Of a stretch of 64,000 nt of DNA, positions 8,214-51,165 are shown in pieces (positions within the stretch are counted from its first letter, which is position 1; every line of letters begins with the position of its first letter). Below the pieces are notes generated by a model that saw only the letters and a list, made by a program, of their open reading frames with translations, was not told the origin of the DNA and did no database searches. The position numbers and the translations under genes are program-made. Source of the stretch: Escherichia coli (GTDB lineage Bacteria; Pseudomonadota; Gammaproteobacteria; Enterobacterales; Enterobacteriaceae); the NCBI GenBank assembly GCA_005400705.1, contig GCA_005400705.1_4079.1; one strand, given 5' to 3'.

Positions 8214-8238
8214 GATATGGGCTTTTTTCGTTTTGGTA

Positions 8239-8267
8239 TTGACAAAGAAGTGCAAAGCTGTTATCAT
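8239..8267 (+). promoter_or_regulatory. sigma70-like promoter (TTGACA-17-TATCAT)
   Basis: -35 TTGACA 8239-8244, 17-nt spacer, -10 TATCAT 8262-8267; upstream of RBS AAGGAG 8282-8287. Confidence 0.5.
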
Positions 8268-8295
8268 GTGTAATCATTTTAAAGGAGAACATATA

Positions 8296-9341: not shown

Positions 9342-9342
9342 T

Positions 9343-9957
9343 ATGACCAGAATTAAAATGTATGATTTGATGCAGTACAGTAAAATTGCCATTCCAGTGC
9401 TTAATAAAGTGCTGGATGCATTCATTGCCAAATACCCTGAGAATTCAGTGTTATGTATTCCATTTAGTGTTCCAGATAAAGATGATATATTCCAAGTGAA
9501 TGTCAGTACACGTGGTATTACATTGCAGCAGAAATACATGGATACGGAATATTATGGAATAAAGTTGGATTCAGTACAGGGTTCAAAATCAGCCTATGAT
9601 TTTTTTGTTCCTAATAATATAGAGTCATGGGAAACAAACATTTCAAAGAAAGATGAAAATGATGTTCCTATTAGTGGTGTGTTCAACAATAAAGTTTTTT
9701 ATTATTACGAAACCGACAAATTCCCTGAAGAGTTATATTACAATTCAGAAATGAATGAAGATGTAGATGCATTCATGTTTCAATTATCGTTAGTACATGA
9801 TATCATTGATGTTCAAGAGTTAAGAGCAGAAATCAATTTAGCTAAAGAGTTATCGGACATGCTGCCACCGTTTAGTATGCTTTTTTGTGAAGGAGGTTAT
9901 TTTTCAAAAGAAGTGTTTGAACATTTCGTAGATGTTGTAAAAGGGTTGGATATATAG
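9343..9957 (+). CDS. family B protein
   Basis: ATG 9343 just after upstream stop; core motif DAFMFQLSLVHD. Confidence 0.6.
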   Translation: MTRIKMYDLMQYSKIAIPVLNKVLDAFIAKYPENSVLCIPFSVPDKDDIFQVNVSTRGITLQQKYMDTEYYGIKLDSVQGSKSAYDFFVPNNIESWETNISKKDENDVPISGVFNNKVFYYYETDKFPEELYYNSEMNEDVDAFMFQLSLVHDIIDVQELRAEINLAKELSDMLPPFSMLFCEGGYFSKEVFEHFVDVVKGLDI

Positions 9958-12164: not shown

Positions 12165-12364
12165 AGACGTTTCATTTTGACAGGCCGCAGGGGGGTCAAA
12201 AAAATTTCCGCTGAAAAACATGCTAAGGTATATGTTTAATATAAAGTTTTATATTGTGTTTTTCAGAGTACAGTTTATGTTTCCTGAAACAAAAAAAAAA
12301 TACCCCGCCACCGAACGTGCTCCTTATATTGGAGTTTACCTTATTAATTATAGTAGAGATTAAG

Positions 12365-12742
12365 ATGGAAATAAAATATAATGAATTTTGTGCAAGGACA
12401 TGGATGTACACTGGTGAGTTAGTTACGCACTCTAACTTATACAAGGGTGATTTAAACTACGCTAGGGACAAGATTTTAAAGTACTGGAATGCTGACTTTT
12501 ATTTGATGGATTTTAGTACTGGGTTTAGGGGTAAAGCAACCGAGATGTTGGACTATACAGTACTTGATGATGCTGCACTGTTTCAGGAGGCATTAGTATT
12601 TGATAAGAAGTACATCTGTACATTAGAAGAGATGATTGAATTACAGCGTAGAATTAAATGTATTCACAGGGAATGTATAGATATCTGGTGCAGTACTGGT
12701 GAAGTTGATTTTTGTAATCATTTCAATCTAGGGGAAGTGTGA
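12365..12742 (+). CDS. family B protein (subfamily B1)
   Basis: ATG 12365 preferred over track start 12254; core DDAALFQEALVFDKKYICTLEE. Confidence 0.65.
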   Translation: MEIKYNEFCARTWMYTGELVTHSNLYKGDLNYARDKILKYWNADFYLMDFSTGFRGKATEMLDYTVLDDAALFQEALVFDKKYICTLEEMIELQRRIKCIHRECIDIWCSTGEVDFCNHFNLGEV

Positions 12743-13098
12743 TGGAATTTGATTTTTTAATATCAGTACATTCTTTTAAGCACAGTTTTCAGTACTTTTG
12801 TAATTTAAACAAAGGTGATTTAATGCACAGTGCGAATGAGTATATTCATTTTACTGATGGTAAATTCTCATTTATTGATTACAGTTCATTAGATTTTCCA
12901 TACACTGATATGCCGGACTATACATTGATGGATGCTGGTGAACTATTTCAAGCTGCATTAGTATTTGACAAGAAGTACATCTGTACATTTGAAGAAGTAA
13001 TTACTATACAAAATGAAATGAAGGTGTATGCATCGTTGAATAAACCTAATGAATGTATTAATCAAGAATACAAATTCAATATAGGAATTCCAAAATGA
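12739..13098 (+). CDS. family B protein (subfamily B1)
   Basis: Core DAGELFQAALVFDKKYICTFEE; ATGA overlap. Confidence 0.7.
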   Translation: MMEFDFLISVHSFKHSFQYFCNLNKGDLMHSANEYIHFTDGKFSFIDYSSLDFPYTDMPDYTLMDAGELFQAALVFDKKYICTFEEVITIQNEMKVYASLNKPNECINQEYKFNIGIPK

Positions 13099-13454
13099 CA
13101 TATGATTATTCTATGTACTATTATAAGTTACCTAAAGGATGGGACTTGTGCTGTAATCTTATTAAGGGAGACTCGGAACATGAGTTGAGTTTATATATGC
13201 ACTACAAAGATTCTTGTTTTAAATTTATTCATGTATTACATGATGGCTATGACTATGAATCTGAGAGTCTTATAGATTATACAGTACTGGACGATGGTGA
13301 ACTATTTCAGGAAGCATTAGTGTTTGATAAGAATAAGTACTCCTGTACATTTGAAGAAATGGTTTCTTTGCAAAATGAAATGAAGAGATTTGAAAAAGAA
13401 AACGTATTTAATCCATCCCCATCAAGAACGAATAATTATTATTTCAATATATGA
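13095..13454 (+). CDS. family B protein (subfamily B1)
   Basis: Core DDGELFQEALVFDKNKYSCTFEE; ATGA overlap. Confidence 0.7.
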   Translation: MTYDYSMYYYKLPKGWDLCCNLIKGDSEHELSLYMHYKDSCFKFIHVLHDGYDYESESLIDYTVLDDGELFQEALVFDKNKYSCTFEEMVSLQNEMKRFEKENVFNPSPSRTNNYYFNI

Positions 13455-13463: not shown

Positions 13464-13958
13464 ATGACATTACAGAGTTCATTGGAAAAAGCAAAGAAGA
13501 TTCATGAGTACATGAATATGGCAAAAGAAGGTTCAGTTTACGGTGTTTTCAAAGACACAAGTACTCAATATTATGTGCCGGATAACCTCCTTTATAATGA
13601 CTGCTCAGATACAGAAACGTGCGTACTGGATACAGAAACGTGCATACTAGATACCGACCCTAATGATTATGAATGTTTCATTGATATGCATAATGAGTAC
13701 ATGGTCTATATTAATGATGCAGATATTACCATATACAGTACTGACTGCGATTCCGATGACATTATAATTCCGAGTGAAGTACTAGAAGGTCAGTGGGATA
13801 GTGAAGAGTATTACTTCCAACAAAGTACTGTTTACGATGATGAAGTACTTGAAGTATTAGTTATTATGTGGTACTTTAAAAGTATTGGTTCTGGGAACTT
13901 CTATTTCGATTACAGATACGTAACGAAAACTGTAGATAACGGTATTAACAGGGGTTGA
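13464..13958 (+). CDS. family B protein (subfamily B2)
   Basis: N-terminus MTLQSSLEKAKKIHEYM; core WDSEEYYFQQSTVYDDEVLEVLVIMWYFKS. Confidence 0.7.
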   Translation: MTLQSSLEKAKKIHEYMNMAKEGSVYGVFKDTSTQYYVPDNLLYNDCSDTETCVLDTETCILDTDPNDYECFIDMHNEYMVYINDADITIYSTDCDSDDIIIPSEVLEGQWDSEEYYFQQSTVYDDEVLEVLVIMWYFKSIGSGNFYFDYRYVTKTVDNGINRG

Positions 13959-13959
13959 A

Positions 13960-14430
13960 ATGAGTTTAGAAAGAGCATTAGAGATTGCGAAGTTAATTGA
14001 TTTATGCAGCAAAGAAATTGTATCAAATTGTCTCAATGGATATCTATTCAAGGAAGGTAAATCATATTGTCGAATGATATACGATGACAGTAGTGAATAT
14101 ATCCATATGTATGAAGAAAACTTAGATGATTCTGACATAGTACTCACAGGATGTGATGTTAATTTGGAAGATAATTACATGTACTTCTGCCGTGATGCTG
14201 ATATTTTAATCCAAGATTCATTAATTCAAACAGGTGCACCAGAGGTATATCTTCCGTATTCAGTACTGGATAATAACTGGGGTAGTGAAGATTACTATTT
14301 CCAGCAGAGTACTATATATAATGAAGATATACTTGACAAACTTGTTATTTCTTGGTACTTTCATAACACGGATTATAGTAGCTTCTACATAGACTTGGAT
14401 CTACTAAGAGTACTTAAAGAGGATATATGA
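13960..14430 (+). CDS. family B protein (subfamily B2)
   Basis: N-terminus MSLERALEIAK; core EDYYFQQSTIYNED. Confidence 0.7.
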   Translation: MSLERALEIAKLIDLCSKEIVSNCLNGYLFKEGKSYCRMIYDDSSEYIHMYEENLDDSDIVLTGCDVNLEDNYMYFCRDADILIQDSLIQTGAPEVYLPYSVLDNNWGSEDYYFQQSTIYNEDILDKLVISWYFHNTDYSSFYIDLDLLRVLKEDI

Positions 14431-14867
14431 GTTTAGAAAAAGCACTAGAACTAGCCAACAAAATACATCAGTACCATGATAAAATAAAAAGTGGGTTCTA
14501 TGCTGATAAAGTACATGCATATGGGAATGAATATTACCTCACTGGAGTAAAGAGATACTCTAATGATATTTTACTTATGGGTCATGATAAAGACAATAAT
14601 ATACAGTACTCTTCATGTAGTCAATATACTAGTTTTATGGTATATATTCCTGGTACTAAGATTACTTTTGACACATCAAATACACCTGTTGACTTCGGAG
14701 TACTTGATGGCCCGTGGGGTACTGAAGAGTATTACTTCCAACAGAGTCTCATTTTTAACCAAGAAATGCTTGATTCCTTGGTTGTGTTGTGGTACTTTAA
14801 GGAATTGAATTTTGAACCATTCTTTCTTGACTGGGGATCATGTGAGTATTTAATTTCAGGGGAATAA
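14427..14867 (+). CDS. family B protein (subfamily B2)
   Basis: N-terminus MSLEKALELANK; core EEYYFQQSLIFNQE. Confidence 0.7.
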   Translation: MSLEKALELANKIHQYHDKIKSGFYADKVHAYGNEYYLTGVKRYSNDILLMGHDKDNNIQYSSCSQYTSFMVYIPGTKITFDTSNTPVDFGVLDGPWGTEEYYFQQSLIFNQEMLDSLVVLWYFKELNFEPFFLDWGSCEYLISGE

Positions 14868-14869
14868 TA

Positions 14870-15358
14870 ATGTCATTACAAAGTGCATTGAAAGAAGCAA
14901 AGAAAATTCATGAGTACATGATTATGGTACAGGAAGGTTCAGTACCAGGTGTATACAAAACATCAGATACGGAATTCTTCGTTAAGGATAGAGATGATTA
15001 TGACGAATCAGAGGTATGTGCAGAAACATTAGTACTGCACACTGATACTGGTGACAGTGATAACTGTGAATATCATATGTACAACCAGTACATTAGTTAT
15101 TGCCGTAATGAAGATATTACCATCTACAACACAGATAGTGATGCTGATGACACTATCATTCCTTATTCAGTACTGGAAGGTCAGTGGGATAGTGAAGAAT
15201 ATTACTTCCAGAATAGTACTATCTACAATGAAGAAGAACTGGATGTTATTGTGATTATGTGGTATTTCAAAAGTATTGACTCCAGTAGTTTCTATTTTGA
15301 TTATGAATATGTAGAGAATACAGTAGGAGAAGGTAATGTCATTACAAAGTGCTCTTGA
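14870..15358 (+). CDS. family B protein (subfamily B2)
   Basis: N-terminus MSLQSALKEAKKIHEYM; core EEYYFQNSTIYNEE. Confidence 0.7.
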   Translation: MSLQSALKEAKKIHEYMIMVQEGSVPGVYKTSDTEFFVKDRDDYDESEVCAETLVLHTDTGDSDNCEYHMYNQYISYCRNEDITIYNTDSDADDTIIPYSVLEGQWDSEEYYFQNSTIYNEEELDVIVIMWYFKSIDSSSFYFDYEYVENTVGEGNVITKCS

Positions 15359-15788
15359 AAAAGCAAAAGAACTACATGGATACTTTGAAGATATAAAGGC
15401 CGGAAAGTTCAAAGAAGTGTACAAAGCCGAGAACGGTAACTACTACAAAGATGAAATGTATAATAACTCCGTTAGTGTAAGGGTTATTCTTGGGTTGAAT
15501 TCCAATAGTCCTATATCGTTTTCTGAATACAATAGAGATGCAGAATTTATTAGTTATGTTGAAAATGGTAGCATTCGTTTTATTAATAGACAAAAACCAT
15601 TAATTTTGAATTATGAAGTACTGAATGGTCCGTGGAATAGTGAAGAGTATTACTTCCAAAACAGTACTGTATATGATGATGAAGTACTTGAAGCATTAGT
15701 TATTATGTGGTACTTCAAGAGTGTTAGCTGTCCTCGATTTTATTTGGATTTCGAAGATCTTCGTAAAGATCCAGAAGGTATAGAATGA
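15336..15788 (+). CDS. family B protein (subfamily B2)
   Basis: N-terminus MSLQSALEKAKELH; core EEYYFQNSTVYDDEVLEALVIMWYFKS. Confidence 0.7.
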   Translation: MSLQSALEKAKELHGYFEDIKAGKFKEVYKAENGNYYKDEMYNNSVSVRVILGLNSNSPISFSEYNRDAEFISYVENGSIRFINRQKPLILNYEVLNGPWNSEEYYFQNSTVYDDEVLEALVIMWYFKSVSCPRFYLDFEDLRKDPEGIE

Positions 15789-16099
15789 AAAACTTATTCA
15801 GTGTTCAGTACGTTCCTGGTGAAATTGGTTTATTGTATCTATTTGACCATGATAATTCATTATTACTAGTAGTGAAGAAATGCCAAGCTAGTTCGTTTGT
15901 TGAATACATTCACGATAGTGAATACATTCCTGATTTCCTAGAGTGTGATTATCACGATGAACATGAATCATTTATTTTTCAGGAATCACTCGTTTGGAAT
16001 AAGTCTATTAACTTCTTTACGTTAATTGAATTACAAAAGCAGGTGAAGTATCATTGGGATTACTTAATTACACAGGATTACATTGAGATAGAAATATAA
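15785..16099 (+). CDS. family B protein
   Basis: Core ESFIFQESLVWN; ATGA overlap. Confidence 0.65.
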   Translation: MKNLFSVQYVPGEIGLLYLFDHDNSLLLVVKKCQASSFVEYIHDSEYIPDFLECDYHDEHESFIFQESLVWNKSINFFTLIELQKQVKYHWDYLITQDYIEIEI

Positions 16100-16407
16100 T
16101 GACTAAAAATGAATTTGATTCACTTTGTACGGTTTATAATTCATTGACAGAAATACCTGACTTTATTAATTACATTTCAGCTTTAAATCAAATTATGCAT
16201 AGTTTTGAACAATCGTTTGAAGAGAAATATGCAGGTAGAAAAGTTCTATGTCATATGTCAATGTACTTGGGAGATGGTGAGCCTTACACTACCAGTACTA
16301 CATGTGAAATAAAAAAATATAATATATTATTGGGGACAATAGAATTCAAGGTATCCAATGGTGGTAGTTATATGTACTTTAGAGATGGAGTGGTTGAATT
16401 ATTATGA
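16099..16407 (+). CDS. family D-like small protein
   Basis: Motif EEKYAGRKVLCHMSMY; tiling ORF. Confidence 0.55.
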   Translation: MTKNEFDSLCTVYNSLTEIPDFINYISALNQIMHSFEQSFEEKYAGRKVLCHMSMYLGDGEPYTTSTTCEIKKYNILLGTIEFKVSNGGSYMYFRDGVVELL

Positions 16408-16853
16408 GTTACGAAAGTGCAATCAAGAAAGCAAATGATATTCTAAAAGTTGTTAAGTTCTTCAAAGAAAATCCTGAATACTTAGCTGATGAAAACCATG
16501 ATCACGATGAGAGATTGAGACGAAAAATTGTTTCTTTATTTGACACTAATGCAGATAATTATAGTCTAATTGAGTTAGCATACGATTATATTTCATTGAA
16601 CCGAAACGGAAATTTAGTTAATATAGAAAGACATGAGAGTGAAGAATCTTTTAAAATTTCAGACATTTTATCCCTGAGTACTGAAGAAGGGTACTTCCAG
16701 GGTAGTACTGTTTATGAACAAGGAACACTTGACAATCTATGCACATTCAGTGTAATATATCAGAAATCAGTACTGGATGTATTTTATCTTGACACTGCTG
16801 AACTGGATACACTAACCAATTTTGTTACTACTGAAGAGGCCACATTCGAGTGA
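16404..16853 (+). CDS. family B protein
   Basis: Core EEGYFQGSTVYE. Confidence 0.65.
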   Translation: MSYESAIKKANDILKVVKFFKENPEYLADENHDHDERLRRKIVSLFDTNADNYSLIELAYDYISLNRNGNLVNIERHESEESFKISDILSLSTEEGYFQGSTVYEQGTLDNLCTFSVIYQKSVLDVFYLDTAELDTLTNFVTTEEATFE

Positions 16854-17386: not shown

Positions 17387-17582
17387 TCGAATTGAATACA
17401 TGAGAACTGTGAGTGCAGTGTGGGATATATGGTTCACTACTAAACCAAAAATGGATTACCATGACTTTAAGCTATTGTTCTTCATTGGCTCTAACAAACA
17501 GGATGTTGCAATGAAGGGTTATATTCAGCACTTACAGGAACTAATACAGAAGAGGGTTAATGAAAATAATAGACCAAGATGA
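17364..17582 (+). CDS. family A-like small protein
   Basis: Motif FIGSNKQDVA; start could instead be ATG 17400. Confidence 0.5.
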   Translation: MKYSKTFNRIEYMRTVSAVWDIWFTTKPKMDYHDFKLLFFIGSNKQDVAMKGYIQHLQELIQKRVNENNRPR

Positions 17583-17751
17583 TATTGCTAAACTATTCAA
17601 TATATATTCTACTAGAATGATGCAAACAGACTCATATAGTACTGAATTCAAAGAGTTGAAAGTACTGATGTACTTGGGAACCCAATATCAGGAACAAGTT
17701 ATTTTGGAATATATTAATTCGTTGAAGAAGGATATCCGTTATGTACGATGA
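17560..17751 (+). CDS. family A small protein
   Basis: Motif YLGTQYQEQV; isolated inside the B array. Confidence 0.6.
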   Translation: MKIIDQDDIAKLFNIYSTRMMQTDSYSTEFKELKVLMYLGTQYQEQVILEYINSLKKDIRYVR

Positions 17752-20552: not shown

Positions 20553-21035
20553 ATGTCCAAAGACCTATCATTTAGCAATGCACAAAAAATCGCACAAAAT
20601 ATCATTAAACTTCATAAGTTCCTTTTAACAGTTAAAGAGAATATAATTCTCCCACGATGCACACTTTATGCGTACAAAAATTATTTGTCAATGAATAGCA
20701 ATTTGTTGCATACTACAGATGAGAATTTCTGTGGTATTCGTGTACTTGACGATGCACCAACAGGGGATTTTATCTCATATTGTTTCCATACATCTGATAG
20801 TTTTAAGTACTATCATCCTAGATTTAATGATGATGAATATGAATATGACACATTTAATGTTAGATCAGAAGAAGAATTCTTCCAGTACAGTACTTTGTAC
20901 AATGAGAGAATCGTGTTTAGTTCTACAATTTTTACAGTACTTAAAGATGAACTCAATGACGCAGATGATAGATTCTATATGGATTTAAACTTCGTAGATG
21001 AAATCATTGAGTACATGGAGAAAAATGGTCTATGA
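20553..21035 (+). CDS. family B protein
   Basis: Core EEEFFQYSTLYN; downstream of promoter. Confidence 0.65.
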   Translation: MSKDLSFSNAQKIAQNIIKLHKFLLTVKENIILPRCTLYAYKNYLSMNSNLLHTTDENFCGIRVLDDAPTGDFISYCFHTSDSFKYYHPRFNDDEYEYDTFNVRSEEEFFQYSTLYNERIVFSSTIFTVLKDELNDADDRFYMDLNFVDEIIEYMEKNGL

Positions 21036-21514
21036 TTACAACAGAATATGATTACGATGGTGTTTTAGAATTTGCATCTAACATTCATCGCATTGCAAAG
21101 GAGTTCAGAAGTCCCCAACCTTTCGGTGGAATGCCTTTTGGTGGAATGTTCCAATATGACCAATTCAGTTCAACCAAAGGAAGACTTGCCTTTAAAAATA
21201 ATAAGGGCAATCAAGTATATGCTGAGTTCTTTGACGATAATGACTTTCACTACAGAGCTGAATATATTTCATATTGTCAAGGGTCTGATTTGAAGATTAA
21301 CATTGATACATTTAGAGATTCAGTGTTTATCCCTTATAGTGAGTTAGTTTTCATGACAGAAGAAATGTACTTCCAAGGGTCTTGTATTCATGATGCAAAA
21401 GTACTTAATGCTATATTACTTTATGGTGCACTACTTCATCATTACAAATACAAACAACGATTCTTTATAGATTTAGTTGTATACCATCAATGCGTGGATT
21501 ATTTGAATGCATAA
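21032..21514 (+). CDS. family B protein
   Basis: Core EEMYFQGSCIHD; ATGA overlap. Confidence 0.65.
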   Translation: MITTEYDYDGVLEFASNIHRIAKEFRSPQPFGGMPFGGMFQYDQFSSTKGRLAFKNNKGNQVYAEFFDDNDFHYRAEYISYCQGSDLKINIDTFRDSVFIPYSELVFMTEEMYFQGSCIHDAKVLNAILLYGALLHHYKYKQRFFIDLVVYHQCVDYLNA

Positions 21515-35245: not shown

Positions 35246-35262
35246 GACAAATGATAAGTTAA

Positions 35263-35307
35263 TGATATAATATAAGGTGACAACATAATATGTTAGTCAC
35301 CTTTTTT
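35263..35307 (+). terminator. rho-independent terminator preceded by a TGATATAAT box
   Basis: TGATATAAT 35263-35271, then hairpin GGTGACAACAT-aat-ATGTTAGTCACC 35276-35301 and T6 35302-35307. Confidence 0.65.
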
Positions 35308-35830
35308 AATCCTGAAAGGTTCCCATAAGGAAATGATTAAAAGCCTAATCCACTCGAAAATGTAGAGGGTAGATGAGTAGTCCTTTCAGTACGAACAGCA
35401 GATGAAACCCGTTAGATGATGGCATAGTTTGAACCACTCACGGCAATGCGGCTGTATAAAGAACTCCAATAGGATAAAGAGAGTTCCTCGATAGACATAT
35501 AAGGATCGCACCTTACCAATTATCTAAGGGAGATTTCATAAGAAATATGCGGTCGGAATTATACAATATAGTTGCGTCCAAATTTTGTGAAATCAAATAC
35601 AAGTACTGGTCATATGGTATTTGTATTATGTGTCGGGATGTTTAAGACCGACGACCGTTGCTACAAGAACCGCGATAGAGAGAAACAGAGCAACCCGCTT
35701 TCGTCTCGTAAGAGAATTCGTGATATGAACTATGTGAAGGCCACCAGCGTCAAATTTTTTTGTTCTTTCCCCTGCGGGGGGATGAAATATGCTCAAGCAA
35801 ACCCCGTCAATATTAATTAAAAGAAAATAG
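35308..35830 (+). ncRNA. candidate structured non-coding RNA or regulatory island (GC-enriched, ORF-free)
   Basis: About 520 bp with no tiling ORF in a genome that is otherwise saturated with coding sequence; visibly higher GC; several local hairpins (GTCGG..CCGAC near 35632-35652, GTTGCT..AGCAAC 35658-35693, CCCCTGCGGGGGG 35770-35782); strand uncertain. Confidence 0.3.
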
Positions 35831-37006: not shown

Positions 37007-37536
37007 AAGAAACATGTGTATTAACGTTTGGTCGTATTAATCCTGTACATCGTGGACATGGTTTAGTTTTTGAAAAGGCCAAAACATTACAAGAACAGTA
37101 CAATGCTGATTTAAAAATATATCTAAGCACCAGTACTGACAATATAAAAAACCCACTCCCACCTGAACTAAAAATGTATTATACAGAGGGATTCTATCCT
37201 TCAGTGCAAGAGAACATCTACACAGAAGACAATCTGTTTGATATAATGAGAGAACTGGATGGAAAGTACTTAGATGTTCTTTTCATATGTGGTTCTGACC
37301 GTATTGATTCTTTTCAAAAAACTCTTGACATGTACAATGGTAAGTTGTATAATTTTTGTAGTATAAAAGCAATTCAGGCAGGTATTGACCGTAATGTAAG
37401 TCAATATAGCTCAACACAAATGCGTAACTTCGCAAAAAATGAAGATTTTGATAGTTTTCGTGAGTTTTTACCTGGAAATGACGAGGACTTAAAAATACAA
37501 TTATTTGAAGACGTTATAAAATACATGAGGAAATAA
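37003..37536 (+). CDS. HxGH-family nucleotidyltransferase (NadM-like NMN adenylyltransferase candidate)
   Basis: N-terminal FGRINPVHRGH matches the (H/T)xGH motif of archaeal-type NMNAT and cytidylyltransferases; ATGA overlap with dam. Confidence 0.5.
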   Translation: MKETCVLTFGRINPVHRGHGLVFEKAKTLQEQYNADLKIYLSTSTDNIKNPLPPELKMYYTEGFYPSVQENIYTEDNLFDIMRELDGKYLDVLFICGSDRIDSFQKTLDMYNGKLYNFCSIKAIQAGIDRNVSQYSSTQMRNFAKNEDFDSFREFLPGNDEDLKIQLFEDVIKYMRK

Positions 37537-37832: not shown

Positions 37833-38112
37833 TGAAATAAATCTTACAGGATATTTTTTACAAGAATCAATGATTAAATTTAGTGATAAATTTTCAGTAC
37901 TGGATGGTATCGAAATGTGGCATGTCAAACCACTGTTCCACACTTTCAGTAAAGAGCACAAAATGTTATTGACTGAAGCCAGTAAATCAAATAACATATG
38001 TGAAATCAAAATTGGTGTAAATGTCTATAAAGGGATGGTTATCTTTTTTGACAATAACAGCAACTACTTTTATATTGTTAAGGAGCATTACGTTGACAAA
38101 TACAAATACTAA
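37825..38112 (+). CDS. hypothetical protein
   Basis: ATG 37825 overlapping upstream TGA (ATGTGTGA). Confidence 0.5.
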   Translation: MCDEINLTGYFLQESMIKFSDKFSVLDGIEMWHVKPLFHTFSKEHKMLLTEASKSNNICEIKIGVNVYKGMVIFFDNNSNYFYIVKEHYVDKYKY

Positions 38113-38707
38113 TACATATTTCCGTTATCTTCGCTTAGGTCTTTCCCTACGTCCGATCCGTGGAAAGTGCGATTCACTCGCTGACCTTGACTATGCATAT
38201 GCATTACATCATGAAGGTGTACAGTATGTATTGGGTGATTATGGTGAATTTGAAGAAACAAATGACAGTACTGGAATTAATGCTGGTGTAGAAAATCTTA
38301 ACAACATTGCTAACAGTTCTCGCCATGACATTGTGTTACAGATTCAAAACTTTATTGAGCAGCACACAGGTAAACGTGTTTGGTGCTATGTCGGTACGGA
38401 TGCACAAATGTCAATTTCATTCGGTAACGATGAAGGATATGTTGCACAGCTTATTATGGATTTTGAATCTGAAGAGAAGTTTTTAGAATTCAAAGAAAAG
38501 ATTATTCAGTCACTTGTTGATATGGGTATCCCCGAAGATAAAATGCCAGAAGTCCAAAACATTGATGAATTTGTTTTGATTCCATCTGATGAGAAATATG
38601 ATGCAATGTTTACTGCTCTTAATATTCCAGGAGTTATTGTGGAGTACTTTGATGATGGTGATGATAGTATCTATATCGATCTAGATGACGATGACGACGA
38701 TGAATAA
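38093..38707 (+). CDS. hypothetical protein with poly-acidic C-terminal tail
   Basis: No ATG after upstream stop; start placed at in-frame TTG 38093, 7 nt after AAGGAG 38080-38085; C-terminus YFDDGDDSIYIDLDDDDDDE. Confidence 0.45.
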   Translation: MTNTNTNTYFRYLRLGLSLRPIRGKCDSLADLDYAYALHHEGVQYVLGDYGEFEETNDSTGINAGVENLNNIANSSRHDIVLQIQNFIEQHTGKRVWCYVGTDAQMSISFGNDEGYVAQLIMDFESEEKFLEFKEKIIQSLVDMGIPEDKMPEVQNIDEFVLIPSDEKYDAMFTALNIPGVIVEYFDDGDDSIYIDLDDDDDDE

Positions 38708-38713
38708 TGTACA

Positions 38714-38741
38714 TAGCCCGACATAAGTTCGGGCTATTTTT
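38714..38741 (+). terminator. rho-independent terminator
   Basis: Hairpin ATAGCCCGA-cataagt-TCGGGCTAT followed by TTTTT. Confidence 0.75.
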
Positions 38742-38753
38742 GTAAGGGGATAT

Positions 38754-39029
38754 ATGAATTATAAAGTTCTACAATATACATACAGTGTTTTGTTTGATTT
38801 ACATCACAATGGAAGATATCTCAATACAATACGAGAAAACACATTCACTCATACTATCTGGATTAATCACTTAATAATGATACGTGAATATTTTGTTAAT
38901 AGTGAGATAATCATTCGTGGTAAAAAACAGAAGATAGAACAAGTTAATAGTTTTGGTGGTAAATTAGTACTATCATTTATAGATAGTAATACTAATGAAA
39001 GATATAGTATAGATTTGGTGGACATATGA
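38754..39029 (+). CDS. family C small protein
   Basis: N-terminus MNYKVLQYTYSVLFDL. Confidence 0.6.
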   Translation: MNYKVLQYTYSVLFDLHHNGRYLNTIRENTFTHTIWINHLIMIREYFVNSEIIIRGKKQKIEQVNSFGGKLVLSFIDSNTNERYSIDLVDI

Positions 39030-39292
39030 ATTATAAAGATTTCCTACTAACATACAAGATTATTCGAGATTTAGCACACGACAATGATAGCCCTAGTCTA
39101 GAAGACACATGCACTGAAATGATTCATACAATTCGTGGTAAGATTAAAAAAAAATTCAGTACTGTTATTATTGGTGATGACCATGCAGAATTTTCTGATA
39201 TAATCATTAGACGTGATGGTAAAGTTGAGGTTCAGTACTACACTGATTTTGGATTTACCAGTATTCCGTTGGAGATATTCCCTTGGGATTAA
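39026..39292 (+). CDS. family C small protein
   Basis: N-terminus MNYKDFLLTYKIIRDL; ATGA overlap. Confidence 0.6.
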   Translation: MNYKDFLLTYKIIRDLAHDNDSPSLEDTCTEMIHTIRGKIKKKFSTVIIGDDHAEFSDIIIRRDGKVEVQYYTDFGFTSIPLEIFPWD

Positions 39293-39594
39293 ATTTAAAT
39301 GATATACAATTCACTTATAAGATCCTATATGATTTGTATGATTTATACCTTGTTAGTAACAAAATAGGTTCACATAACTCATCCAAAGAACAACCATTTA
39401 TTGATTTATATATTGAGTACTTAGATTCAGTAGGTGAATATATAAAAAAGAATTACAGTACTTTTAACGATGGAAATGATATATTCGAGTTCTCTGGAGT
39501 TAAATCATACAATGGGATTATCCATGTTGAATTTCTTGAAATAACCGATAGGGGATTTATCGAGATTAAAGTTGTGAAGTTGGTGAATTTATAA
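39283..39594 (+). CDS. family C small protein
   Basis: LNDIQFTYKILYDLYD; apparent TTG start after GGAG. Confidence 0.5.
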   Translation: MGLNLNDIQFTYKILYDLYDLYLVSNKIGSHNSSKEQPFIDLYIEYLDSVGEYIKKNYSTFNDGNDIFEFSGVKSYNGIIHVEFLEITDRGFIEIKVVKLVNL

Positions 39595-39604
39595 GAGGTT
39601 ACAT

Positions 39605-39916
39605 ATGTTATTAAATGATATACAATTCACATACAAATTTTTGTATATCCAATACGCTACGGTTGATGCTGGAGAATATCTCTACGGTGAAATCTATCGT
39701 TCGGTATGGATAAAGTTTTTGGATGAATTACATGAATATTACCATGATTTGTGTATAGTTCGTGATAATAAAATATACAAATTCCGCGATATTGTTAGTC
39801 ATAGCGGTAAGCTACGATTGGAATTAAGTACTGATAGTGATGTTGATTGGATTGGTGTAAATTTACTGGAGTTGGAGAATGAAAAACAACTTAAAGGAAA
39901 TACAAGTATTTTATAA
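39605..39916 (+). CDS. family C small protein
   Basis: N-terminus MLLNDIQFTYKFLYIQY; RBS GAGG. Confidence 0.6.
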   Translation: MLLNDIQFTYKFLYIQYATVDAGEYLYGEIYRSVWIKFLDELHEYYHDLCIVRDNKIYKFRDIVSHSGKLRLELSTDSDVDWIGVNLLELENEKQLKGNTSIL

Positions 39917-40163
39917 ATTCTTATACTTGTCATATGTAAAAGATGAGTACTATGAAAGTGTGTATTATTTTTTATGGCAACATTACCGTACTATAGTAAG
40001 AGATTTATATATAGGAAAATCTATCATATCCAATGGTGAAAAATGTATATGTACTGATGTTGTTAGTTTTAATGGTTCTTTAACACTGTGTTTCAGATGC
40101 GATAATAATAGTGGGTCATTTTCATTAAACGTATATCAGTTAGAAGGAATAAATTTTGAATAA
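39879..40163 (+). CDS. family C small protein
   Basis: EIQVFYKFLYLSY. Confidence 0.55.
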   Translation: MKNNLKEIQVFYKFLYLSYVKDEYYESVYYFLWQHYRTIVRDLYIGKSIISNGEKCICTDVVSFNGSLTLCFRCDNNSGSFSLNVYQLEGINFE

Positions 40164-40356
40164 ATGTCCATATTGTAACAGTACTCAATTAGCTCGTTTC
40201 CGTTTAGATTCAGACTGGGCGACTGGTGCTGGTGATTTCTTCCCTATTAATGATGATGCGGAATACACCGAAGAACAGCACAAAGATTTTGATAAATCAT
40301 GGCGACCTGACATTGAGTGCATTTATTGCCTTAATTGTGAGCGTGTTCATGACTAA
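40156..40356 (+). CDS. small zinc-ribbon protein
   Basis: Two CxxC pairs: CPYCNS and CIYCLNCERV. Confidence 0.55.
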   Translation: MNKCPYCNSTQLARFRLDSDWATGAGDFFPINDDAEYTEEQHKDFDKSWRPDIECIYCLNCERVHD

Positions 40357-40612
40357 AGCTGAACTAATAGTTCATACATATAAAATGATATCAAGTACTA
40401 AGTTATCATATAGTGAAGATAATCCAGTACTGGATTATTTTGTTGAATTATTGAAAGAGCATTATATTGGTAAATCACTGATTCTTAATAATATTAATTT
40501 CACGGTAAAGGATGTAGCACCTGGAAAAAACGTACTAATAGTATGTGTTACTTCATCTGATAACCCAGTATACCCAATATCAATAATTTTTGAGATATTA
40601 GGAGATTTATGA
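40349..40612 (+). CDS. family C-like small protein
   Basis: ATG 40349 overlapping upstream stop; MTKAELIVHTYKMI ... EHYIGKSLI. Confidence 0.5.
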   Translation: MTKAELIVHTYKMISSTKLSYSEDNPVLDYFVELLKEHYIGKSLILNNINFTVKDVAPGKNVLIVCVTSSDNPVYPISIIFEILGDL

Positions 40613-40899
40613 ATATCATTTTAATGCAGAAAACATATGCTATATTGGTGAAAGATTATTCCATTACTTTCGATTCACAAGAAAGTGCTCTACATAACCT
40701 ATACAAAAACGTAACACAAGAATACAGAAATATGTTTTCTGACTTAGTAGTAGGAAGGTATTTCAGTACTAGAAAATACCCAAAACTTCAAATAGTTGAT
40801 GTTTCTTTTTATTTCAATGGTCATATTACTATTCATAGTTTAGACCAAGATTCAACAACGTACTTAAACTTTTCATTTGATGAGGTAACATTTTTATGA
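40609..40899 (+). CDS. family C small protein
   Basis: MNIILMQKTYAILVKDY; ATGA overlap. Confidence 0.6.
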   Translation: MNIILMQKTYAILVKDYSITFDSQESALHNLYKNVTQEYRNMFSDLVVGRYFSTRKYPKLQIVDVSFYFNGHITIHSLDQDSTTYLNFSFDEVTFL

Positions 40900-41072
40900 G
40901 AACAGTATTTTTTATCTGGAGTCTTTTTTCATTGGCAGTACTGACAGTATGTGGGATTTGTTTCCTTTCATCAATTAATACTTGGTATATCAATTTACTA
41001 TTTCCATTTGTCTGTGTTGGTTTAGGGTTTACTTTGCATAGTGTATGTAAGGATTACAATGAGAACAAATGA
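40896..41072 (+). CDS. small membrane protein (58 aa, absent from ORF track)
   Basis: ATG 40896 in ATGA overlap with upstream stop; two hydrophobic segments (FFIWSLFSLAVLTVCGICFL, LLFPFVCVGLGF). Confidence 0.45.
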   Translation: MRTVFFIWSLFSLAVLTVCGICFLSSINTWYINLLFPFVCVGLGFTLHSVCKDYNENK

Positions 41073-41337
41073 AGTACTTATTGCTGAAACAATGAAGATG
41101 ATTTACAATATCACGTCAGCACAGAATATGCCCTATCCAACTAAGTCTTTATTGAGGACTGTGTATCTGGGGATAGTACAGGAGTACTACAAATCCAAGC
41201 ACCGAAGCATTATTAGTGTTTATCGTGATTATGAAAGGATTCGTATTTTATTCTGGAACAAGAATCGAGTACGTTCTGAATGTGACCTAGTGGACTTTAA
41301 ATTAGAGAATCTTTATTGCTATAAACAGGGACAATAG
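41059..41337 (+). CDS. family A-like small protein
   Basis: ATG 41059 after AAGGA; motif YLGIVQEYY. Confidence 0.5.
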   Translation: MRTNEVLIAETMKMIYNITSAQNMPYPTKSLLRTVYLGIVQEYYKSKHRSIISVYRDYERIRILFWNKNRVRSECDLVDFKLENLYCYKQGQ

Positions 41338-41345
41338 TTTAATTC

Positions 41346-41354
41346 ATGATATAA
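41346..41354 (+). promoter_or_regulatory. extended -10 box TGATATAAT
   Basis: Exact TGATATAAT about 40 nt upstream of ATG 41396; no good -35. Confidence 0.4.
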
Positions 41355-41395
41355 TAATGGGTAAGGAACAATAATTAACACAAGGAGTGTGTGAA

Positions 41396-42124
41396 ATGCT
41401 TGACCGTATCCGTTTCGCTACAGAGATGGCGAATGAATTAAACATGGCAAATTTCCAAATGTTAACATCAGTAATGGCTGAACATGCATGTGCTTATTCT
41501 GTAAGTGGTGTGCAGTGTGGTCAGGAGAATATGTTAGCAGATGTTTATAGTGAAGTGCAAAGTAAGCAATATAGTGTAAAGACATATAAGGATAAGTTTG
41601 TTAGTCTTTATATGAACGAAGATATTGCCGAAGACCGTAAATTCACTGATTTTATTATTGAACGACGAGTATCAGGTGTATCTAATCCTAATGCATCAAG
41701 CGAGGAAGTTTTTGCAGAAGTACTGAAAGATATATACGAAAATGAATTAAAAAGTAAGAATCATTACAATGTACGTGAAACTAACACAGTGCTCTTGGGA
41801 TATGATGAAGACGAAGAATACTATTATTTTCGTATGACTGAAGTTCCTTTTGAATACAAATCTCCATATACAACTACAGTGAAAGAATTTACTGAAAAAA
41901 GTAAAAACTTCATGAAGCATGAAGGAAATCGTTGTAGTATAAATGGTTACGACGAAAATGGCATTCACATTTATGAATGGGTTCACCCAAATTGTCAGAC
42001 ATACACTCGTTGCTTGAAAAAACGTTATAATTTAGAAGAGCATGAATCATTCTATTTTAAAGTTAAGAAGCAAGGTTACACTCGCCCCGCCGATTCTGAA
42101 TTGATGGGTATGATATATTTCTAA
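41396..42124 (+). CDS. hypothetical protein
   Basis: ATG 41396 nine nt after AAGGAG 41382-41387; 242 aa. Confidence 0.6.
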   Translation: MLDRIRFATEMANELNMANFQMLTSVMAEHACAYSVSGVQCGQENMLADVYSEVQSKQYSVKTYKDKFVSLYMNEDIAEDRKFTDFIIERRVSGVSNPNASSEEVFAEVLKDIYENELKSKNHYNVRETNTVLLGYDEDEEYYYFRMTEVPFEYKSPYTTTVKEFTEKSKNFMKHEGNRCSINGYDENGIHIYEWVHPNCQTYTRCLKKRYNLEEHESFYFKVKKQGYTRPADSELMGMIYF

Positions 42125-42134
42125 GGAAACTTCT

Positions 42135-42416
42135 ATGGATTTTTATCTACACACATGGACATACGAACAATATATTACATTATATCTTGAAATTATTAAC
42201 ACAGAACCTAGGTGTGGTTGTTGGTTCGCAGATATCATAAAAGAGTATGCTGACGAGTTCGAGTTTGTGTATCTTGGGTCTGATATATTTGTAAAAAGTG
42301 TAGGTAAAACCGGACGAATCACTGATATAGATTACGACACTGTTAGTGTGAATTTCTATGTTGATTTTCCTGATGCTGGCGTTGATGGTGTATATTGTCT
42401 TTATGAAATAATTTAA
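42135..42416 (+). CDS. hypothetical protein
   Basis: 93-aa ORF followed by terminator. Confidence 0.55.
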   Translation: MDFYLHTWTYEQYITLYLEIINTEPRCGCWFADIIKEYADEFEFVYLGSDIFVKSVGKTGRITDIDYDTVSVNFYVDFPDAGVDGVYCLYEII

Positions 42417-42423
42417 ATTCTTA

Positions 42424-42447
42424 GGCCAGCGTTTGCTGGTCTTTTTT
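42424..42447 (+). terminator. rho-independent terminator
   Basis: Hairpin GGCCAGC-gttt-GCTGGTC followed by T6. Confidence 0.75.
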
Positions 42448-42460
42448 CGCAGGTACAAAG

Positions 42461-42763
42461 ATGTTCAGTATAGATTTAATTAACAGTACTATCAAAATGT
42501 TGGCTGATTTGGTGAGACAATCAAATGGAACTTTATATTCTGCAATGTATAAAATGTTTGACCGATATATCAAGGATTGTAACATATCATTATATGGACT
42601 TGCTGTTGATATAGACGATTACTATGGAATTAATACTTCATATAAAACAGGAATTTTAATTGGTATTAATATAAAGATGGGGTATTTCCCTTATTACTGT
42701 ATAGGATTACCAGATAATACTTTGGTAGAATATCCAGCCAGTACTATTAAATTAAGAGGATAA
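42461..42763 (+). CDS. hypothetical protein
   Basis: 100-aa tiling ORF. Confidence 0.55.
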   Translation: MFSIDLINSTIKMLADLVRQSNGTLYSAMYKMFDRYIKDCNISLYGLAVDIDDYYGINTSYKTGILIGINIKMGYFPYYCIGLPDNTLVEYPASTIKLRG

Positions 42764-42770
42764 AACTAAA

Positions 42771-43349
42771 ATGAATGTATTAGAATTAAGTACTAAGCTG
42801 ATTAGTATGCGTAATGAGTGGTACGATTGGTTTTATAATGGTACTGATATGGATTTTTCAAAATATCCATTTATGGAATCAGGATGTGATGCAAGATACC
42901 GCTGGTTGAGCAAAGATTGTTCTGGTTTACATATTCTAGTTGACGATAGTGGTCAGGGAATTATAAAAGATTTACTTCAAGTTGAACAACTCGTCCATGA
43001 TAATTGGTGTGATAACGATCCATACCTTGGAAATATGATTTATGTAAGTGAAGATGATTGCATATTCGTTATCCAGCGTCATGGTAATTCTATGTTTTAT
43101 GTAGCAGACAGCAGTACTCCAGAAGGTGCAGCAGCCGATGGTCTTATGCCTAAGATTGATATATTGGAATTTGGATTACCTGAGCACTTCCAGATTAGTA
43201 CTTTATACGATATTCCACCACTTGAGTTCTTTGAAGAATTTAAATTGTACTACAATGATCTTCAAAAATTGAGTACTGATCGACGCATTGAAATAACTGT
43301 TAAGTACATGGACGGAACGAAATTAACTGATACGGGGATAGAATTTTGA
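42771..43349 (+). CDS. family B protein
   Basis: Core PEHFQISTLYD; isolated from the main array. Confidence 0.6.
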   Translation: MNVLELSTKLISMRNEWYDWFYNGTDMDFSKYPFMESGCDARYRWLSKDCSGLHILVDDSGQGIIKDLLQVEQLVHDNWCDNDPYLGNMIYVSEDDCIFVIQRHGNSMFYVADSSTPEGAAADGLMPKIDILEFGLPEHFQISTLYDIPPLEFFEEFKLYYNDLQKLSTDRRIEITVKYMDGTKLTDTGIEF

Positions 43350-44035
43350 TTAAAGATTTAGATAGAATTTTATATGTACTAAGGGGTGTAATTACATTAC
43401 ATCCACAAATCAATCGAATTGAAAGTACATTTCAGTTGGAGTCAAGAGAAACTCCATATTCACATATATCAAATGTAGTTGGTTCACTCAGTACTGAAGA
43501 CTCGCCTTACGATATTTGTGTATGTGAAGTACAACCAAGTTCGGATCTTGGATTTGCTATTTTTGATAAAAATCAAAATCTCATTAGTATGTTTCAGTGC
43601 AATAATCCTTTTTGGAAAACATGCCTGTATCCAGAGTGGGCGATGCTTGATCCAACCAAGAGTACCATTAAAGTTTATGACTCTAAAAATGATGAAGTCG
43701 TTATTGATTTGGATGAGTCAATGTCAGAGGAAGAACACTTTCAGCTAATGATGATGCGTGCTATGCCTGAGTACAATGCAATGATTAACACTGTGCAATA
43801 CATTAAGGATACTATGCCATCATTGCGTACACATGAGTTTTGTCATCCTGTATTGTATGAACATTTGGATTTAGATTTCAGTACTATTAAATTTAAAGAT
43901 AGTGTTATTAGATATATCCAAGAGGTTACTAAATTTGATTTTATTAGTACTATGAACAATAATCCAAAAACTAATTTTAGGCATCAGTACAATGAATCTT
44001 TGTCCGGTGGACGCGATACAAGTTGGTGGAAATAA
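43346..44035 (+). CDS. family B protein
   Basis: Core EEEHFQLMMMR; ATGA overlap. Confidence 0.6.
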   Translation: MIKDLDRILYVLRGVITLHPQINRIESTFQLESRETPYSHISNVVGSLSTEDSPYDICVCEVQPSSDLGFAIFDKNQNLISMFQCNNPFWKTCLYPEWAMLDPTKSTIKVYDSKNDEVVIDLDESMSEEEHFQLMMMRAMPEYNAMINTVQYIKDTMPSLRTHEFCHPVLYEHLDLDFSTIKFKDSVIRYIQEVTKFDFISTMNNNPKTNFRHQYNESLSGGRDTSWWK

Positions 44036-44036
44036 T

Positions 44037-44300
44037 ATGAATATTAAAGATAGATTACAATTACTATACACTATTGAACAGGCTGCTTTTGAACTTGTTA
44101 ATAAAATCTCCGAAGAACTTCCCAAAGGAACTATAGTTCGTGTAATTGAGAGGGATTATGAATCTGGAGAAATTGAAGAACTAGTACTAACCGTGAATAA
44201 AGTAACATACTATGAATCTGAGTTGGCTATCCAATGTATATCGGAAGATGGTAAAATATACTATTATGACACTGGTGTAGATATAGAGGTAATAAAATGA
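44037..44300 (+). CDS. hypothetical protein
   Basis: ATG 44037 after GGTGGA. Confidence 0.5.
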   Translation: MNIKDRLQLLYTIEQAAFELVNKISEELPKGTIVRVIERDYESGEIEELVLTVNKVTYYESELAIQCISEDGKIYYYDTGVDIEVIK

Positions 44301-49902: not shown

Positions 49903-50229
49903 GTGAATGGTTCGTTTTTAACAATTTTAGAAAAGACATCCGAGATGCTTTCTAGTTCGTTAATGCACATTTTCAGTACTAATAATTTATACAATACCCA
50001 GGTGTTAGATTCAATTAGTAATAACTATGTGGTAAGTATATCTGATGAAATATGTCCATTTAATGCGTATACGAATTATAGTGTAGAAGAGTTTCATATA
50101 TCCGAAATTCGATGTGGTTTTGGTGCTTGGTTAGTTCTAAATGAACGTTCAGGGACGTCTTTATACATCGAAGAAATTGATAAATTTATATACAAAGGAG
50201 TAGAATATGTTAACCCCAATCATTCTTAG
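49903..50229 (+). CDS. hypothetical protein
   Basis: 108-aa ORF; apparent GTG start after GGAGAAG. Confidence 0.45.
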   Translation: MNGSFLTILEKTSEMLSSSLMHIFSTNNLYNTQVLDSISNNYVVSISDEICPFNAYTNYSVEEFHISEIRCGFGAWLVLNERSGTSLYIEEIDKFIYKGVEYVNPNHS

Positions 50230-50836
50230 CAGTGCATATGTAATCGGTATTATTATTTCTGGTATGCTTGCATATAACTATAACAGAAGTGTTCTAGGTT
50301 ATGTAGTACTTGGTACAGTACTAAGTCCAGTGATTGCTATTGGTCTTCTTGTTATGCTAGGTGAGAAAAATACAAACTTCTTTATTACTAAAGAACTTGA
50401 TAAAATCACCCCAGCACCAGAAACAGTTATTCCAGAAGTTAAAGAAGAAGTTAAAGAAGTTGAAGTGCAAATGCAAGTTAAAGTGTATAATACACTTGAA
50501 GAAACTGACCCTAAAGTTGTAGTGAATGTAGTTCCAGTCGTTGAAGATGTGAAACCAAAAGCTCCTAAAGCACAGAAAAATACTAAAACTGCAAAGAAAG
50601 CTCGTTACACTAAAGGTAAGAACAAAGGTAAATCTAAGGATGAACCACAACTAGGTGTTCATGACCATACTGCACAAATTGCAACGGCAGCGACCGCAGC
50701 AGCAATCGTAACATCACCAATCTACAACAATGATGATTACAGTGATTATAGCCGTCACAGCAGTTCTTCCTCTGATTCTTGTTCCTATGATAGCTCTAGT
50801 TCTGATTCAAGTTCATCTTCTGGAAGTTGTGATTAA
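50207..50836 (+). CDS. membrane protein with low-complexity C-terminal region
   Basis: Two N-terminal hydrophobic helices; lysine-rich middle; Ser/Asp-rich tail SSSSSDSCSYDSSSSDSSSSSGSCD. Confidence 0.6.
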   Translation: MLTPIILSSAYVIGIIISGMLAYNYNRSVLGYVVLGTVLSPVIAIGLLVMLGEKNTNFFITKELDKITPAPETVIPEVKEEVKEVEVQMQVKVYNTLEETDPKVVVNVVPVVEDVKPKAPKAQKNTKTAKKARYTKGKNKGKSKDEPQLGVHDHTAQIATAATAAAIVTSPIYNNDDYSDYSRHSSSSSDSCSYDSSSSDSSSSSGSCD

Positions 50837-51165
50837 TGTCAATGAAACCACTAATTCAACATAATATTTTTTATAGGTCATTATTCAAAATTCAAGATGA
50901 TTTTTATCAGACGTTGAGTAATGATCTTATAGGTAAAACTGTACGATATTCGGAACAATACATCAAACGTATGACAAGTCAGTATATTGACCCTGAATAC
51001 GAATACGACATTGAACACATTAATCCCAATACTAGAATGAAAATCATTGAGATATTTAAGAATGGGAGAACTATAGGTGCTGAAATTGAGTACTTGAATT
51101 GTGATTGTTACATAGATACAGAGTTGAGTTTGGATTATCTTGTTTTAGTGGATGATGAGGAATAA
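50836..51165 (+). CDS. family D small protein
   Basis: Motif NDLIGKTVRYSEQY; TAATG overlap. Confidence 0.55.
   Translation: MSMKPLIQHNIFYRSLFKIQDDFYQTLSNDLIGKTVRYSEQYIKRMTSQYIDPEYEYDIEHINPNTRMKIIEIFKNGRTIGAEIEYLNCDCYIDTELSLDYLVLVDDEE

Follow-up and report, generated by a model that had tools for sequence, protein, structure and literature searches.

For more than 80% of jumbo coliphage genes no function is known. Phage CBB has been reported to carry 22 paralogous open reading frames (ORFs) (PMC5259590), and the variable regions of large vibrio phages are enriched in uncharacterised genes and in defence and anti-defence genes (PMC12028318). Here we describe seven small genes in tandem (G1–G7) with an embedded gene for a predicted zinc-ribbon protein (Zn), found in a 64,000 nt stretch of DNA (the window) from an Escherichia coli assembly (GCA_005400705.1, contig GCA_005400705.1_4079.1). 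The array is like the tandem arrays and hyperplastic regions of other large phages in its small same-strand genes of unknown function, its origin by duplication, its variable slot in the backbone and its turnover by recombination. It is unlike those arrays in that the family surrounds a conserved Zn gene and has been retained across two genera. This genome arm is rich in tandem paralog arrays, and the kind of feature is already known; what is new is a family delimited across five PHROGs, together with its fold, its linkage to Zn and its evolutionary signature.

The window is DNA of an Asteriusvirus jumbo coliphage (121Q/PBECO4 group). Positions 38000-43000 share 98-99% identity with Escherichia phages vB_EcoM_E9.1, phAPEC6, 121Q, G17 and PBECO4, whose genomes are about 350 kb in size, and 33 of the 36 phage records that match this region do so over 80% or more of the query. 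The DNA is AT-rich (GC content about 32%) and nearly all genes lie on the + strand. The backbone runs from a Dam methylase and a cytidylyltransferase through the genes u1-u3, then a slot, then d2, the RNA ligase RnlA and a polynucleotide kinase. The array block is the occupant of this plastic slot in an otherwise conserved backbone, and all genes of the array region are labelled "hypothetical protein" in the matching phage records.

Paralogy and predicted fold of the array proteins

A first-pass annotation of the window had called seven consecutive small genes here, and all seven are found on the + strand with the coordinates it gave (Table 1). G1–G7 are real genes, since their ORFs are intact and in unchanged order in metagenomic contigs as well as in 33 of the 36 phage records, a Shine-Dalgarno-like motif precedes every gene, and the ratio of non-synonymous to synonymous substitution rates (dN/dS) is below 1. 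The majority of the starts overlap the preceding stop. The products are soluble proteins of about 90 residues, mildly acidic to neutral (isoelectric point, pI, 4.7-8.0), and have no hydrophobic segment.

The same annotation had taken the seven for paralogs, a claim borne out strongly for G1–G5 and weakly but reproducibly for G6 and G7. Pairwise identity within G1–G5 is 23-30%. Among 18 local proteins, formal pairwise alignment with BLASTP found significant similarity for G4-G5, G3-G4, G1-G5 and G2-G3 (E = 2e-9 to 2e-6), and phmmer connected G5 with G6 (3.8e-5) and with G7 (2e-4). Smith-Waterman z-scores against 400 shuffles reached 12.1 (G4-G5), 11.6 (G3-G4), 10.7 and 9.5 for the core pairs and lay between 5 and 12 in eight of the ten G1–G5 pairs; the indirect pairs G2-G4, G3-G5 and G2-G5 gave -0.3 to 2.4. 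The z-score was 6.6 for G5-G6, only 3.0 for G5-G7 and about 3 for G7-G1. Comparison of ortholog-group profiles with hhalign scored 90-99% in nine of the ten G1–G5 pairs (for example, 99% for G1 to both G3 and G4, and 96.8% for G2-G3), the exception being G2-G5, which was unlinked at 0.6%. With the same method G1-G6 scored 79% and G5-G7 only 15%.

A hidden Markov model (HMM) of the seven proteins was run against the 372 window ORFs of at least 50 amino acids (aa) and matched only G1–G7, with the next E-value at 0.024. In leave-one-out searches within the window, G4 (2.5e-14), G5 (2.5e-13), G3 (1e-6) and also G1 were well recovered, G7 (0.0027) and G2 (0.027) were recovered weakly, and G6 was not recovered. 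We also left out whole ortholog groups, after enlarging the profile with orthologs and with distant family members of other phages, and used 108 antisense ORFs as decoys. Under this scheme G1 (2e-18), G2 (2.4e-7), G7 (1.2e-4 to 7.5e-4, over nearly its full length) and G6 (9e-4 to 6e-3) all stayed related to the family, and the best decoy had an E-value of 0.19 or worse. By sequence comparison we therefore regard G1–G5 as certain paralogs, and G6 and G7 as probable ones, weaker but consistent, whose membership also draws support from their position and size and, in the case of G7, from a structural match. That the paralog array is real seems to us virtually beyond doubt.

The N-terminal signature originally proposed for the family, (L)NDIQFTYK(F/I)LYD, is exact in G3 and G4 only and far more degenerate elsewhere. 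The positions conserved in 48 non-redundant members are, in G5 numbering, I8, Q9, T11, Y12, L15, Y43, V61, S63, G66 and L88, which gives a family-wide core of I-Q-x-T-Y in helix 1, a Y ending helix 2 and V-x-S-x-x-G in a beta-hairpin.

The neighbouring genes u1, u2, d1, d3 and TM were considered as additional members and rejected by hhalign and HMM. Scores to the family in hhalign were below 10% for d1, d3, d4, u1 and u2, and TM had no profile link. The values for d1, a borderline case, were an HMM E-value of 0.02-0.35, shuffle z-scores of 3.2-3.5 against G6 and G7, and an hhalign score below 8%. The gene d4 was recruited at iteration 2 of a local profile search (E = 8.3e-5) and had a group-out E-value of 5.7e-4, covering HMM positions 4-56 only; its hhalign link was weak and to G6 only (9.8%). 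On these profile matches d4 is possibly a distant family member.

Structure prediction, which had been suggested as a check, succeeded for part of the family. The AlphaFold2 model of G5, built from a 25-sequence family alignment, has a mean predicted local distance difference test score (pLDDT) of 88.7. Its elements (H5-21, H26-44, E48-51, E54-64, E67-74, E80-84 and a short helix) form a two-helix hairpin packed on a small SH3/Tudor-like beta-barrel. In BFVD, the slurp01 ortholog of G7 matches this model (TM-score 0.79, E = 4e-5) and has the same predicted fold; the significant matches there are to the family itself only, and two RaK2 proteins match weakly. For G6 the prediction was of low confidence: a model from a shallow alignment of orthologs only has a pLDDT of 55 and an H-E-E-E-E arrangement that follows the G5 order from helix 2 on. 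A Foldseek search of the G5 model against the PDB returned nothing significant and no full-length match, the best E-value being 0.077, with eIF5A/EF-P, PcrA Tudor, chromo, VapX and WYL barrels among the hits. As modelled, the helical hairpin and the generic small SH3/Tudor-like barrel make up a combination without a characterised counterpart.

Searches of Pfam, NCBIfam and PADLOC gave no usable match to the family proteins, the Pfam hits with an E-value of 1 or lower being chance ones under the cutoff, and a sequence-profile search of the PDB gave nothing relevant. A PADLOC REase_II match of G2 (7.8e-4) was dismissed as chance, as none of 24 other family members, G2 orthologs included, matches. 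Likewise, DpnI-type matches of G6 (0.03 and 0.13) were set aside, being unshared by its orthologs or by other members and lacking conservation of the catalytic motif. In PHROGs, the proteins fall into phrog_21004 (G3 and G4), phrog_32291 (G1), phrog_35943 (G2), phrog_33961 (G6) and phrog_28826 (G7), all of unknown function; matches to the proteins' own PHROGs have E-values of 1e-44 to 1e-62, and G5 is without a family of its own. Cross-matches to phrog_21004 were obtained with G1 (3.5e-5) and G5 (1.6e-4). PHROGs thus holds the same proteins, but in at least five groups that look unrelated, and it has no record of their seven-member paralogy, their fold or their evolution. Our literature searches found no description of the family.

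Distribution and divergence of the family and Zn

A word-indexed search of 5.8 billion proteins yielded 41 clusters, every one of which comes from these phages or from assemblies of E. coli and Salmonella. Searching 1.84 billion representatives exhaustively with HMMER gave 20 matches, 18 of which are proteins of 87-105 residues. The remaining two (P0051 and P0054) are giant proteins with PKD/Ig repeats, in which weak matches to beta-strands are summed, and were rejected as spurious. The distribution of the family thus appears narrow and lineage-restricted in these searches.

The zinc-ribbon gene that the first-pass annotation had placed inside the array is a real ORF. Its four cysteines C4/C7 and C58/C61 form two conserved CxxC pairs (a predicted zinc ribbon) and are kept both in the window protein and in its counterpart, 74% identical, from a distant metagenomic lineage (L016-L018); C55 is not kept. 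Identity of Zn is 71-100% across all lineages, Klebsiella phage K64-1 (Alcyoneusvirus) included, and only three clusters occur among the 5.8 billion proteins. A Pfam scan of Zn gave no match above cutoff. Assignment to the Lar-type restriction-alleviation zinc ribbon (Lar_restr_allev, PF14354) was rejected at 12.4 bits against a gathering cutoff of 28.6 (E = 0.19). Zn and that family are alike in having about 60-66 residues and two CxxC pairs, but with a Pfam score below cutoff a Lar-like identity is a lead at most.

Copy number varies between lineages. There are seven family members in the window, A4 and ph0011, five in JNE01 and Turkey5, about seven or eight in L016-L018, and about four weak ones in K64-1. 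In A4, five members precede Zn, and three of these are G1-like at 36-39%; in JNE01 and Turkey5, three precede Zn and two weak ones follow it. In L016-L018, where u3 is 68%, d2 81% and Zn 74% identical, one member is followed by Zn and then by six more profile-recruited genes of 90-114 aa. The u3-d2 slot of K64-1 holds a Zn homolog (71% identity), and ORFs of about 90-110 aa around it match the family profile at 5e-5, 3e-4, 6e-3 and 0.03. The syntenic slot of Pectobacterium phage CBB and Salmonella phage 7t3 contains neither Zn nor the family, with unrelated genes instead. Since the family and Zn are present together in Asteriusvirus, L016-L018 and K64-1 and absent together from CBB and 7t3, they appear to behave as one module that is gained or lost as a whole. 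The array is a tandem multigene family, old and lineage-restricted, of RaK2-like jumbo phages.

Within this module the seven genes diverge far more than their flanks. Compared with ph0011, u3 is 98%, Zn 97% and d2 92% identical at the amino acid level, against 55% for G1, 76% for G2, 73% for G3, 60% for G4, 59% for G5, 29% for G6 and 55% for G7. Compared with the metagenomic locus L003, G1 (68%), G6 (85%) and G7 (75%) stand out while all else is 99-100% identical; the G1 allele has been replaced there between flanks of 100% identity. Compared with WPEC3, G4 and G5 are 99-100% identical in a background of 85% nucleotide identity, with G1 at 59% and G6 at 29%. Sliding nucleotide identity against WPEC3 shows a block of 100% identity spanning G4, G5 and Zn with 70-80% around it. 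In these profiles, the drops in identity begin and end at gene borders, which indicates that co-circulating phages recombine and thereby exchange gene-sized cassettes.

Simple Nei-Gojobori estimates of dN/dS, indicative only because the genes are short and dS is partly saturated, are 0.12-0.97 for the family, and mostly 0.2-0.6. They are 0-0.10 for Zn, 0.02-0.03 for u3 (0.11 against A4, the most divergent genome), 0.05-0.09 for d2 and 0.03-0.10 for RnlA; taken together, Zn and the flanks span 0-0.13. Across the paralogs only the scaffold residues are conserved, and the rest is free to change. We consider it highly probable that the array is a fast-evolving recombining module.

Other variable loci were observed in the window and in relatives. 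In two islands (5278-9954 and 49903-51162) identity to ph0011 falls to 20-66% in a background of about 80-95%. A 102-aa gene just before RnlA (43992-44300) has only 76% identity in phages with 96-100% identity elsewhere in this region, and on this alignment looks to be another single-gene allele replacement. Between d1 and d2, ph0011 (L008, 4675-6159) carries a lineage-specific insertion with a 494-aa ORF, and vB_Ec-M-J (L010, 4698-5621) carries one with an annotated endonuclease. Both insertions lie outside the array and adjoin a conserved promoter-like site.

Neighbouring genes and transcription layout

Table 1. Positions of the array genes and of the features around them in the window.
Feature	Position	Strand	Description
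u3	38093-38707		204 aa, pI 4.06, net charge about -30, poly-Asp C-terminus; right after the Dam methylase and cytidylyltransferase genes
Upstream intrinsic-terminator-like hairpin and T-run	38713-38745	+	GCCCGAC...GTCGGGC, stem 38713-38737
G1	38754-39029	+	91 aa, family member
G2	39026-39292	+	88 aa, family member
G3	39283-39594	+	103 aa, TTG start, family member
G4	39605-39916	+	103 aa, family member
G5	39879-40163	+	94 aa, central family member, structure modelled
Zn (zinc-ribbon type)	40156-40356	+	66 aa, TTG start, CxxC...CxxC; embedded, not a family member
G6	40349-40612	+	87 aa from the ATG annotated in phage G17; weaker member
G7	40609-40899	+	96 aa, weakest family member
TM	40896-41072	+	58 aa, hydrophobic membrane-type ORF, same transcription unit; not a family member
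d1	41059-41337	+	92 aa, basic, pI 9.5; borderline family scores
Sigma-70-like extended -10 element	41329-41355	+	GGACA-N-TGATATAAT, 32 nt before d2
d2	41396-42124	+	242 aa, conserved backbone gene; closes the variable slot on its downstream side
Second intrinsic-terminator-like hairpin and T-run	42423-42448	+	stem 42423-42442
d4	42461-42763	+	100 aa; possibly an eighth, distant member (match to the N-terminal half only)

The order of product sizes (91-88-103-103-94-[Zn 66]-87-96-58-92-242-93-100 aa) is the same in close relatives and in relatives of 85-89% identity. The position of TM, which has a grand average of hydropathicity (GRAVY) of 0.97, is also kept in relatives. The gene d2 is found in 71 phage records in all, at 59-100% identity, with 59-68% across RaK2-like genera. 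The product of u3 resembles a DNA mimic; it has no Pfam match and is highly conserved, the lower dN/dS range given above being that of the three closer comparisons. Deposited genomes differ in their gene calls for the array block: in the phAPEC6 record (281102-280768 region), G5 and the zinc-ribbon gene are unannotated and G6 is called with a longer N-terminus.

The first-pass annotation had the array bounded by two terminators. Both are present, but the second lies 1.5 kb past the end of the array, and four unrelated genes (TM, d1, d2 and d3) and a promoter-like element stand between. The upstream terminator ends 16 nt 5' of the G1 ATG, and its hairpin and T-run are kept in the five aligned lineages (W, L006, ph0011, A4 and JNE01) with varying loops. 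A terminator is annotated at this site in the G17 record and at the second site in the UE-S1 record. The promoter-like element between d1 and d2 (GGGACA-N16-TATAAT with a preceding TG) is kept in all Asteriusvirus loci examined. Extended -10 motifs occur six times on the window's + strand but once on its - strand; three are intergenic, 32-35 nt 5' of a start codon. Because of the conserved promoter-like site, the terminator-bounded unit is probably better read as split, in the order terminator, G1–G5, Zn, G6, G7, TM, d1, promoter, d2, d3, terminator. Expression of G1 to d1 would probably depend on read-through of the conserved upstream terminator, as there is no space for a promoter between it and G1. 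A candidate promoter inside G2 (TGATATAAT at 39196) occurs in close relatives only, is absent from ph0011, WPEC3, A4 and JNE01, and was not relied on.

Further upstream, a perfect sigma-70 consensus (TTGACA-17-TATAAT, 12/12) lies at 37325-37353 inside the cytidylyltransferase-like gene, upstream of u1-u3. A 326-bp intergenic region (35246-35571) contains an extended -10 promoter-like TGATATAAT (35263-35271) with a hairpin and T-run downstream of it, within about 8 nt; it could encode a very short transcript or an attenuator, to judge by this arrangement, and no tRNA was found in it.

At least three other tandem arrays lie in the window. A 16-member family at 134-5303 (plus 17560-17748) encodes apparently all-helical proteins of 70-90 aa with an LGTNYQE motif and 26-53% identity. 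A family at 13464-16850 (plus 21032-21511) has seven members of about 150-165 aa (31-57% identity), and one at 12254-13451 has three members of 119-162 aa (41-45% identity). A link of G1–G7 to the LGTNYQE family came down to one near miss (E = 0.0013, hhalign 0.14%) and was discarded, and links to the other two arrays were rejected.

Possible functions of the array

The reading that we favour, though tentatively and as something a little short of an even prospect, is that the family proteins are diversifying intracellular binders in host interaction, taking part in host take-over or counter-defence. It is suggested by a conserved scaffold with variable surface residues, by the many copies and by the neighbouring genes for Dam methylase, RnlA and polynucleotide kinase. 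Within the infected cell the family proteins would form a panel of binders directed at variable host proteins, the number of paralogs and the diversity of alleles would broaden the range of host variants covered, and the conserved zinc-ribbon protein would contribute an invariant function co-inherited with the panel. The authors of the phAPEC6 study read methylation as protective and raised the possibility of a phage countermeasure to the Prr abortive-infection system (PMC7247149). In the same study gp383c-gp389c are absent from the 62-protein virion proteome determined by mass spectrometry (PMC7247149), and the family proteins are non-virion.

Several observations weigh against the host-interaction reading. 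All dN/dS values of the family are below 1, so that relaxed constraint is inseparable from positive selection. Variability does not single out the family, because other genes of the genome arm are equally variable (5278-9954 and 49903-51162, and u2, d3 and d4 in A4). A functional homolog was not found in Pfam, NCBIfam, PADLOC, PHROGs or by PDB sequence search. Moreover, the conserved terminator directly upstream could mean low expression, and the co-occurrence of Zn and the family is based on only five lineages.

The alternative that survives best, while still unlikely, is that the genes are dispensable duplicates drifting under relaxed constraint in a hyperplastic region prone to recombination, so that the mechanics of duplication and recombination, and not selection, account for the pattern. 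At least three other tandem paralog arrays and several other variable islands in the window would fit such drift, as would dN/dS values that are raised yet below 1 and the loss of copies in JNE01 and Turkey5. However, drifting duplicates would not be expected to remain intact ORFs with Shine-Dalgarno sites at seven positions across lineages when the paralogs are only about 25% identical, nor to keep the fold-defining residues in 48 non-redundant members. The dN/dS values, mostly 0.2-0.6 and not about 1, and the joint persistence of the family and Zn across two genera also speak against it.

Rather less likely, in our estimation, is that the family proteins are specificity adaptors or accessory subunits of the Zn protein, each paralog redirecting one shared activity to different targets. 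The argument for adaptors starts from the presence or absence of both in all five lineages and from the place of Zn inside the array, where overlapping start and stop codons suggest translational coupling; purifying selection on Zn is moreover strong, and its neighbours vary. All of this amounts to co-location, and the place of Zn is not fixed: it follows member 5 in the window but member 1 in L016-L018.

The predicted barrel raises another explanation, which we think improbable, namely that the proteins modulate host RNA polymerase by docking on its beta subunit in the manner of a Tudor-like domain of the CarD/Mfd/UvrD type. The outcome, equally improbable, would be tuning or shut-off of host transcription, or anti-termination of phage units. 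Compared with the known Tudor-like RNA-polymerase-interacting domains (CarD/TRCF RID and the C-terminal domain of UvrD/PcrA), the family shows no sequence-family match, with identity of 4-12% and no member reaching any Pfam family, and those domains have no counterpart of its N-terminal helical hairpin. The G5 model is matched about as well by other SH3-like barrels (the KOW-like EF-P and eIF5A, chromo, WYL and VapX), as expected of a generic small beta-barrel. The beta subunit is also highly conserved among hosts, a poor match for a rapidly diversifying set of seven copies.

A more elaborate form of the host-interaction reading, of comparably low probability, is that the array and Zn constitute one counter-defence or host-takeover module, in which the paralogs are interchangeable specificity cassettes for polymorphic host proteins, swapped by recombination. 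In that case Zn would carry the invariant activity and the cassettes would recognise components of defence systems or the RNA polymerase beta lobe; if true, this would be a phage-encoded, combinatorially diversified binder panel.

Finally, a role as virion or assembly components (internal proteins, decoration proteins or chaperones) is barely credible, for although other large phages have small paralogous internal and decoration proteins, none of gp383c-gp389c is among the phAPEC6 virion proteins and the genes lie far from the structural modules, amid enzymes of nucleic acid metabolism.

Taken together, five PHROG families of unknown function and G5 are merged into a single family with a confident fold model, and this family is among the fastest-changing and most recombination-shuffled blocks of the conserved backbone. 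The array block, at about 2.1 kb, provides a short, well-defined list of candidates in phages under consideration for E. coli therapy. If its products do not bind variable host factors, it would be another ordinary paralog array of a large phage; if they do, it would exemplify in nature how phage effectors diversify by means of cassettes.

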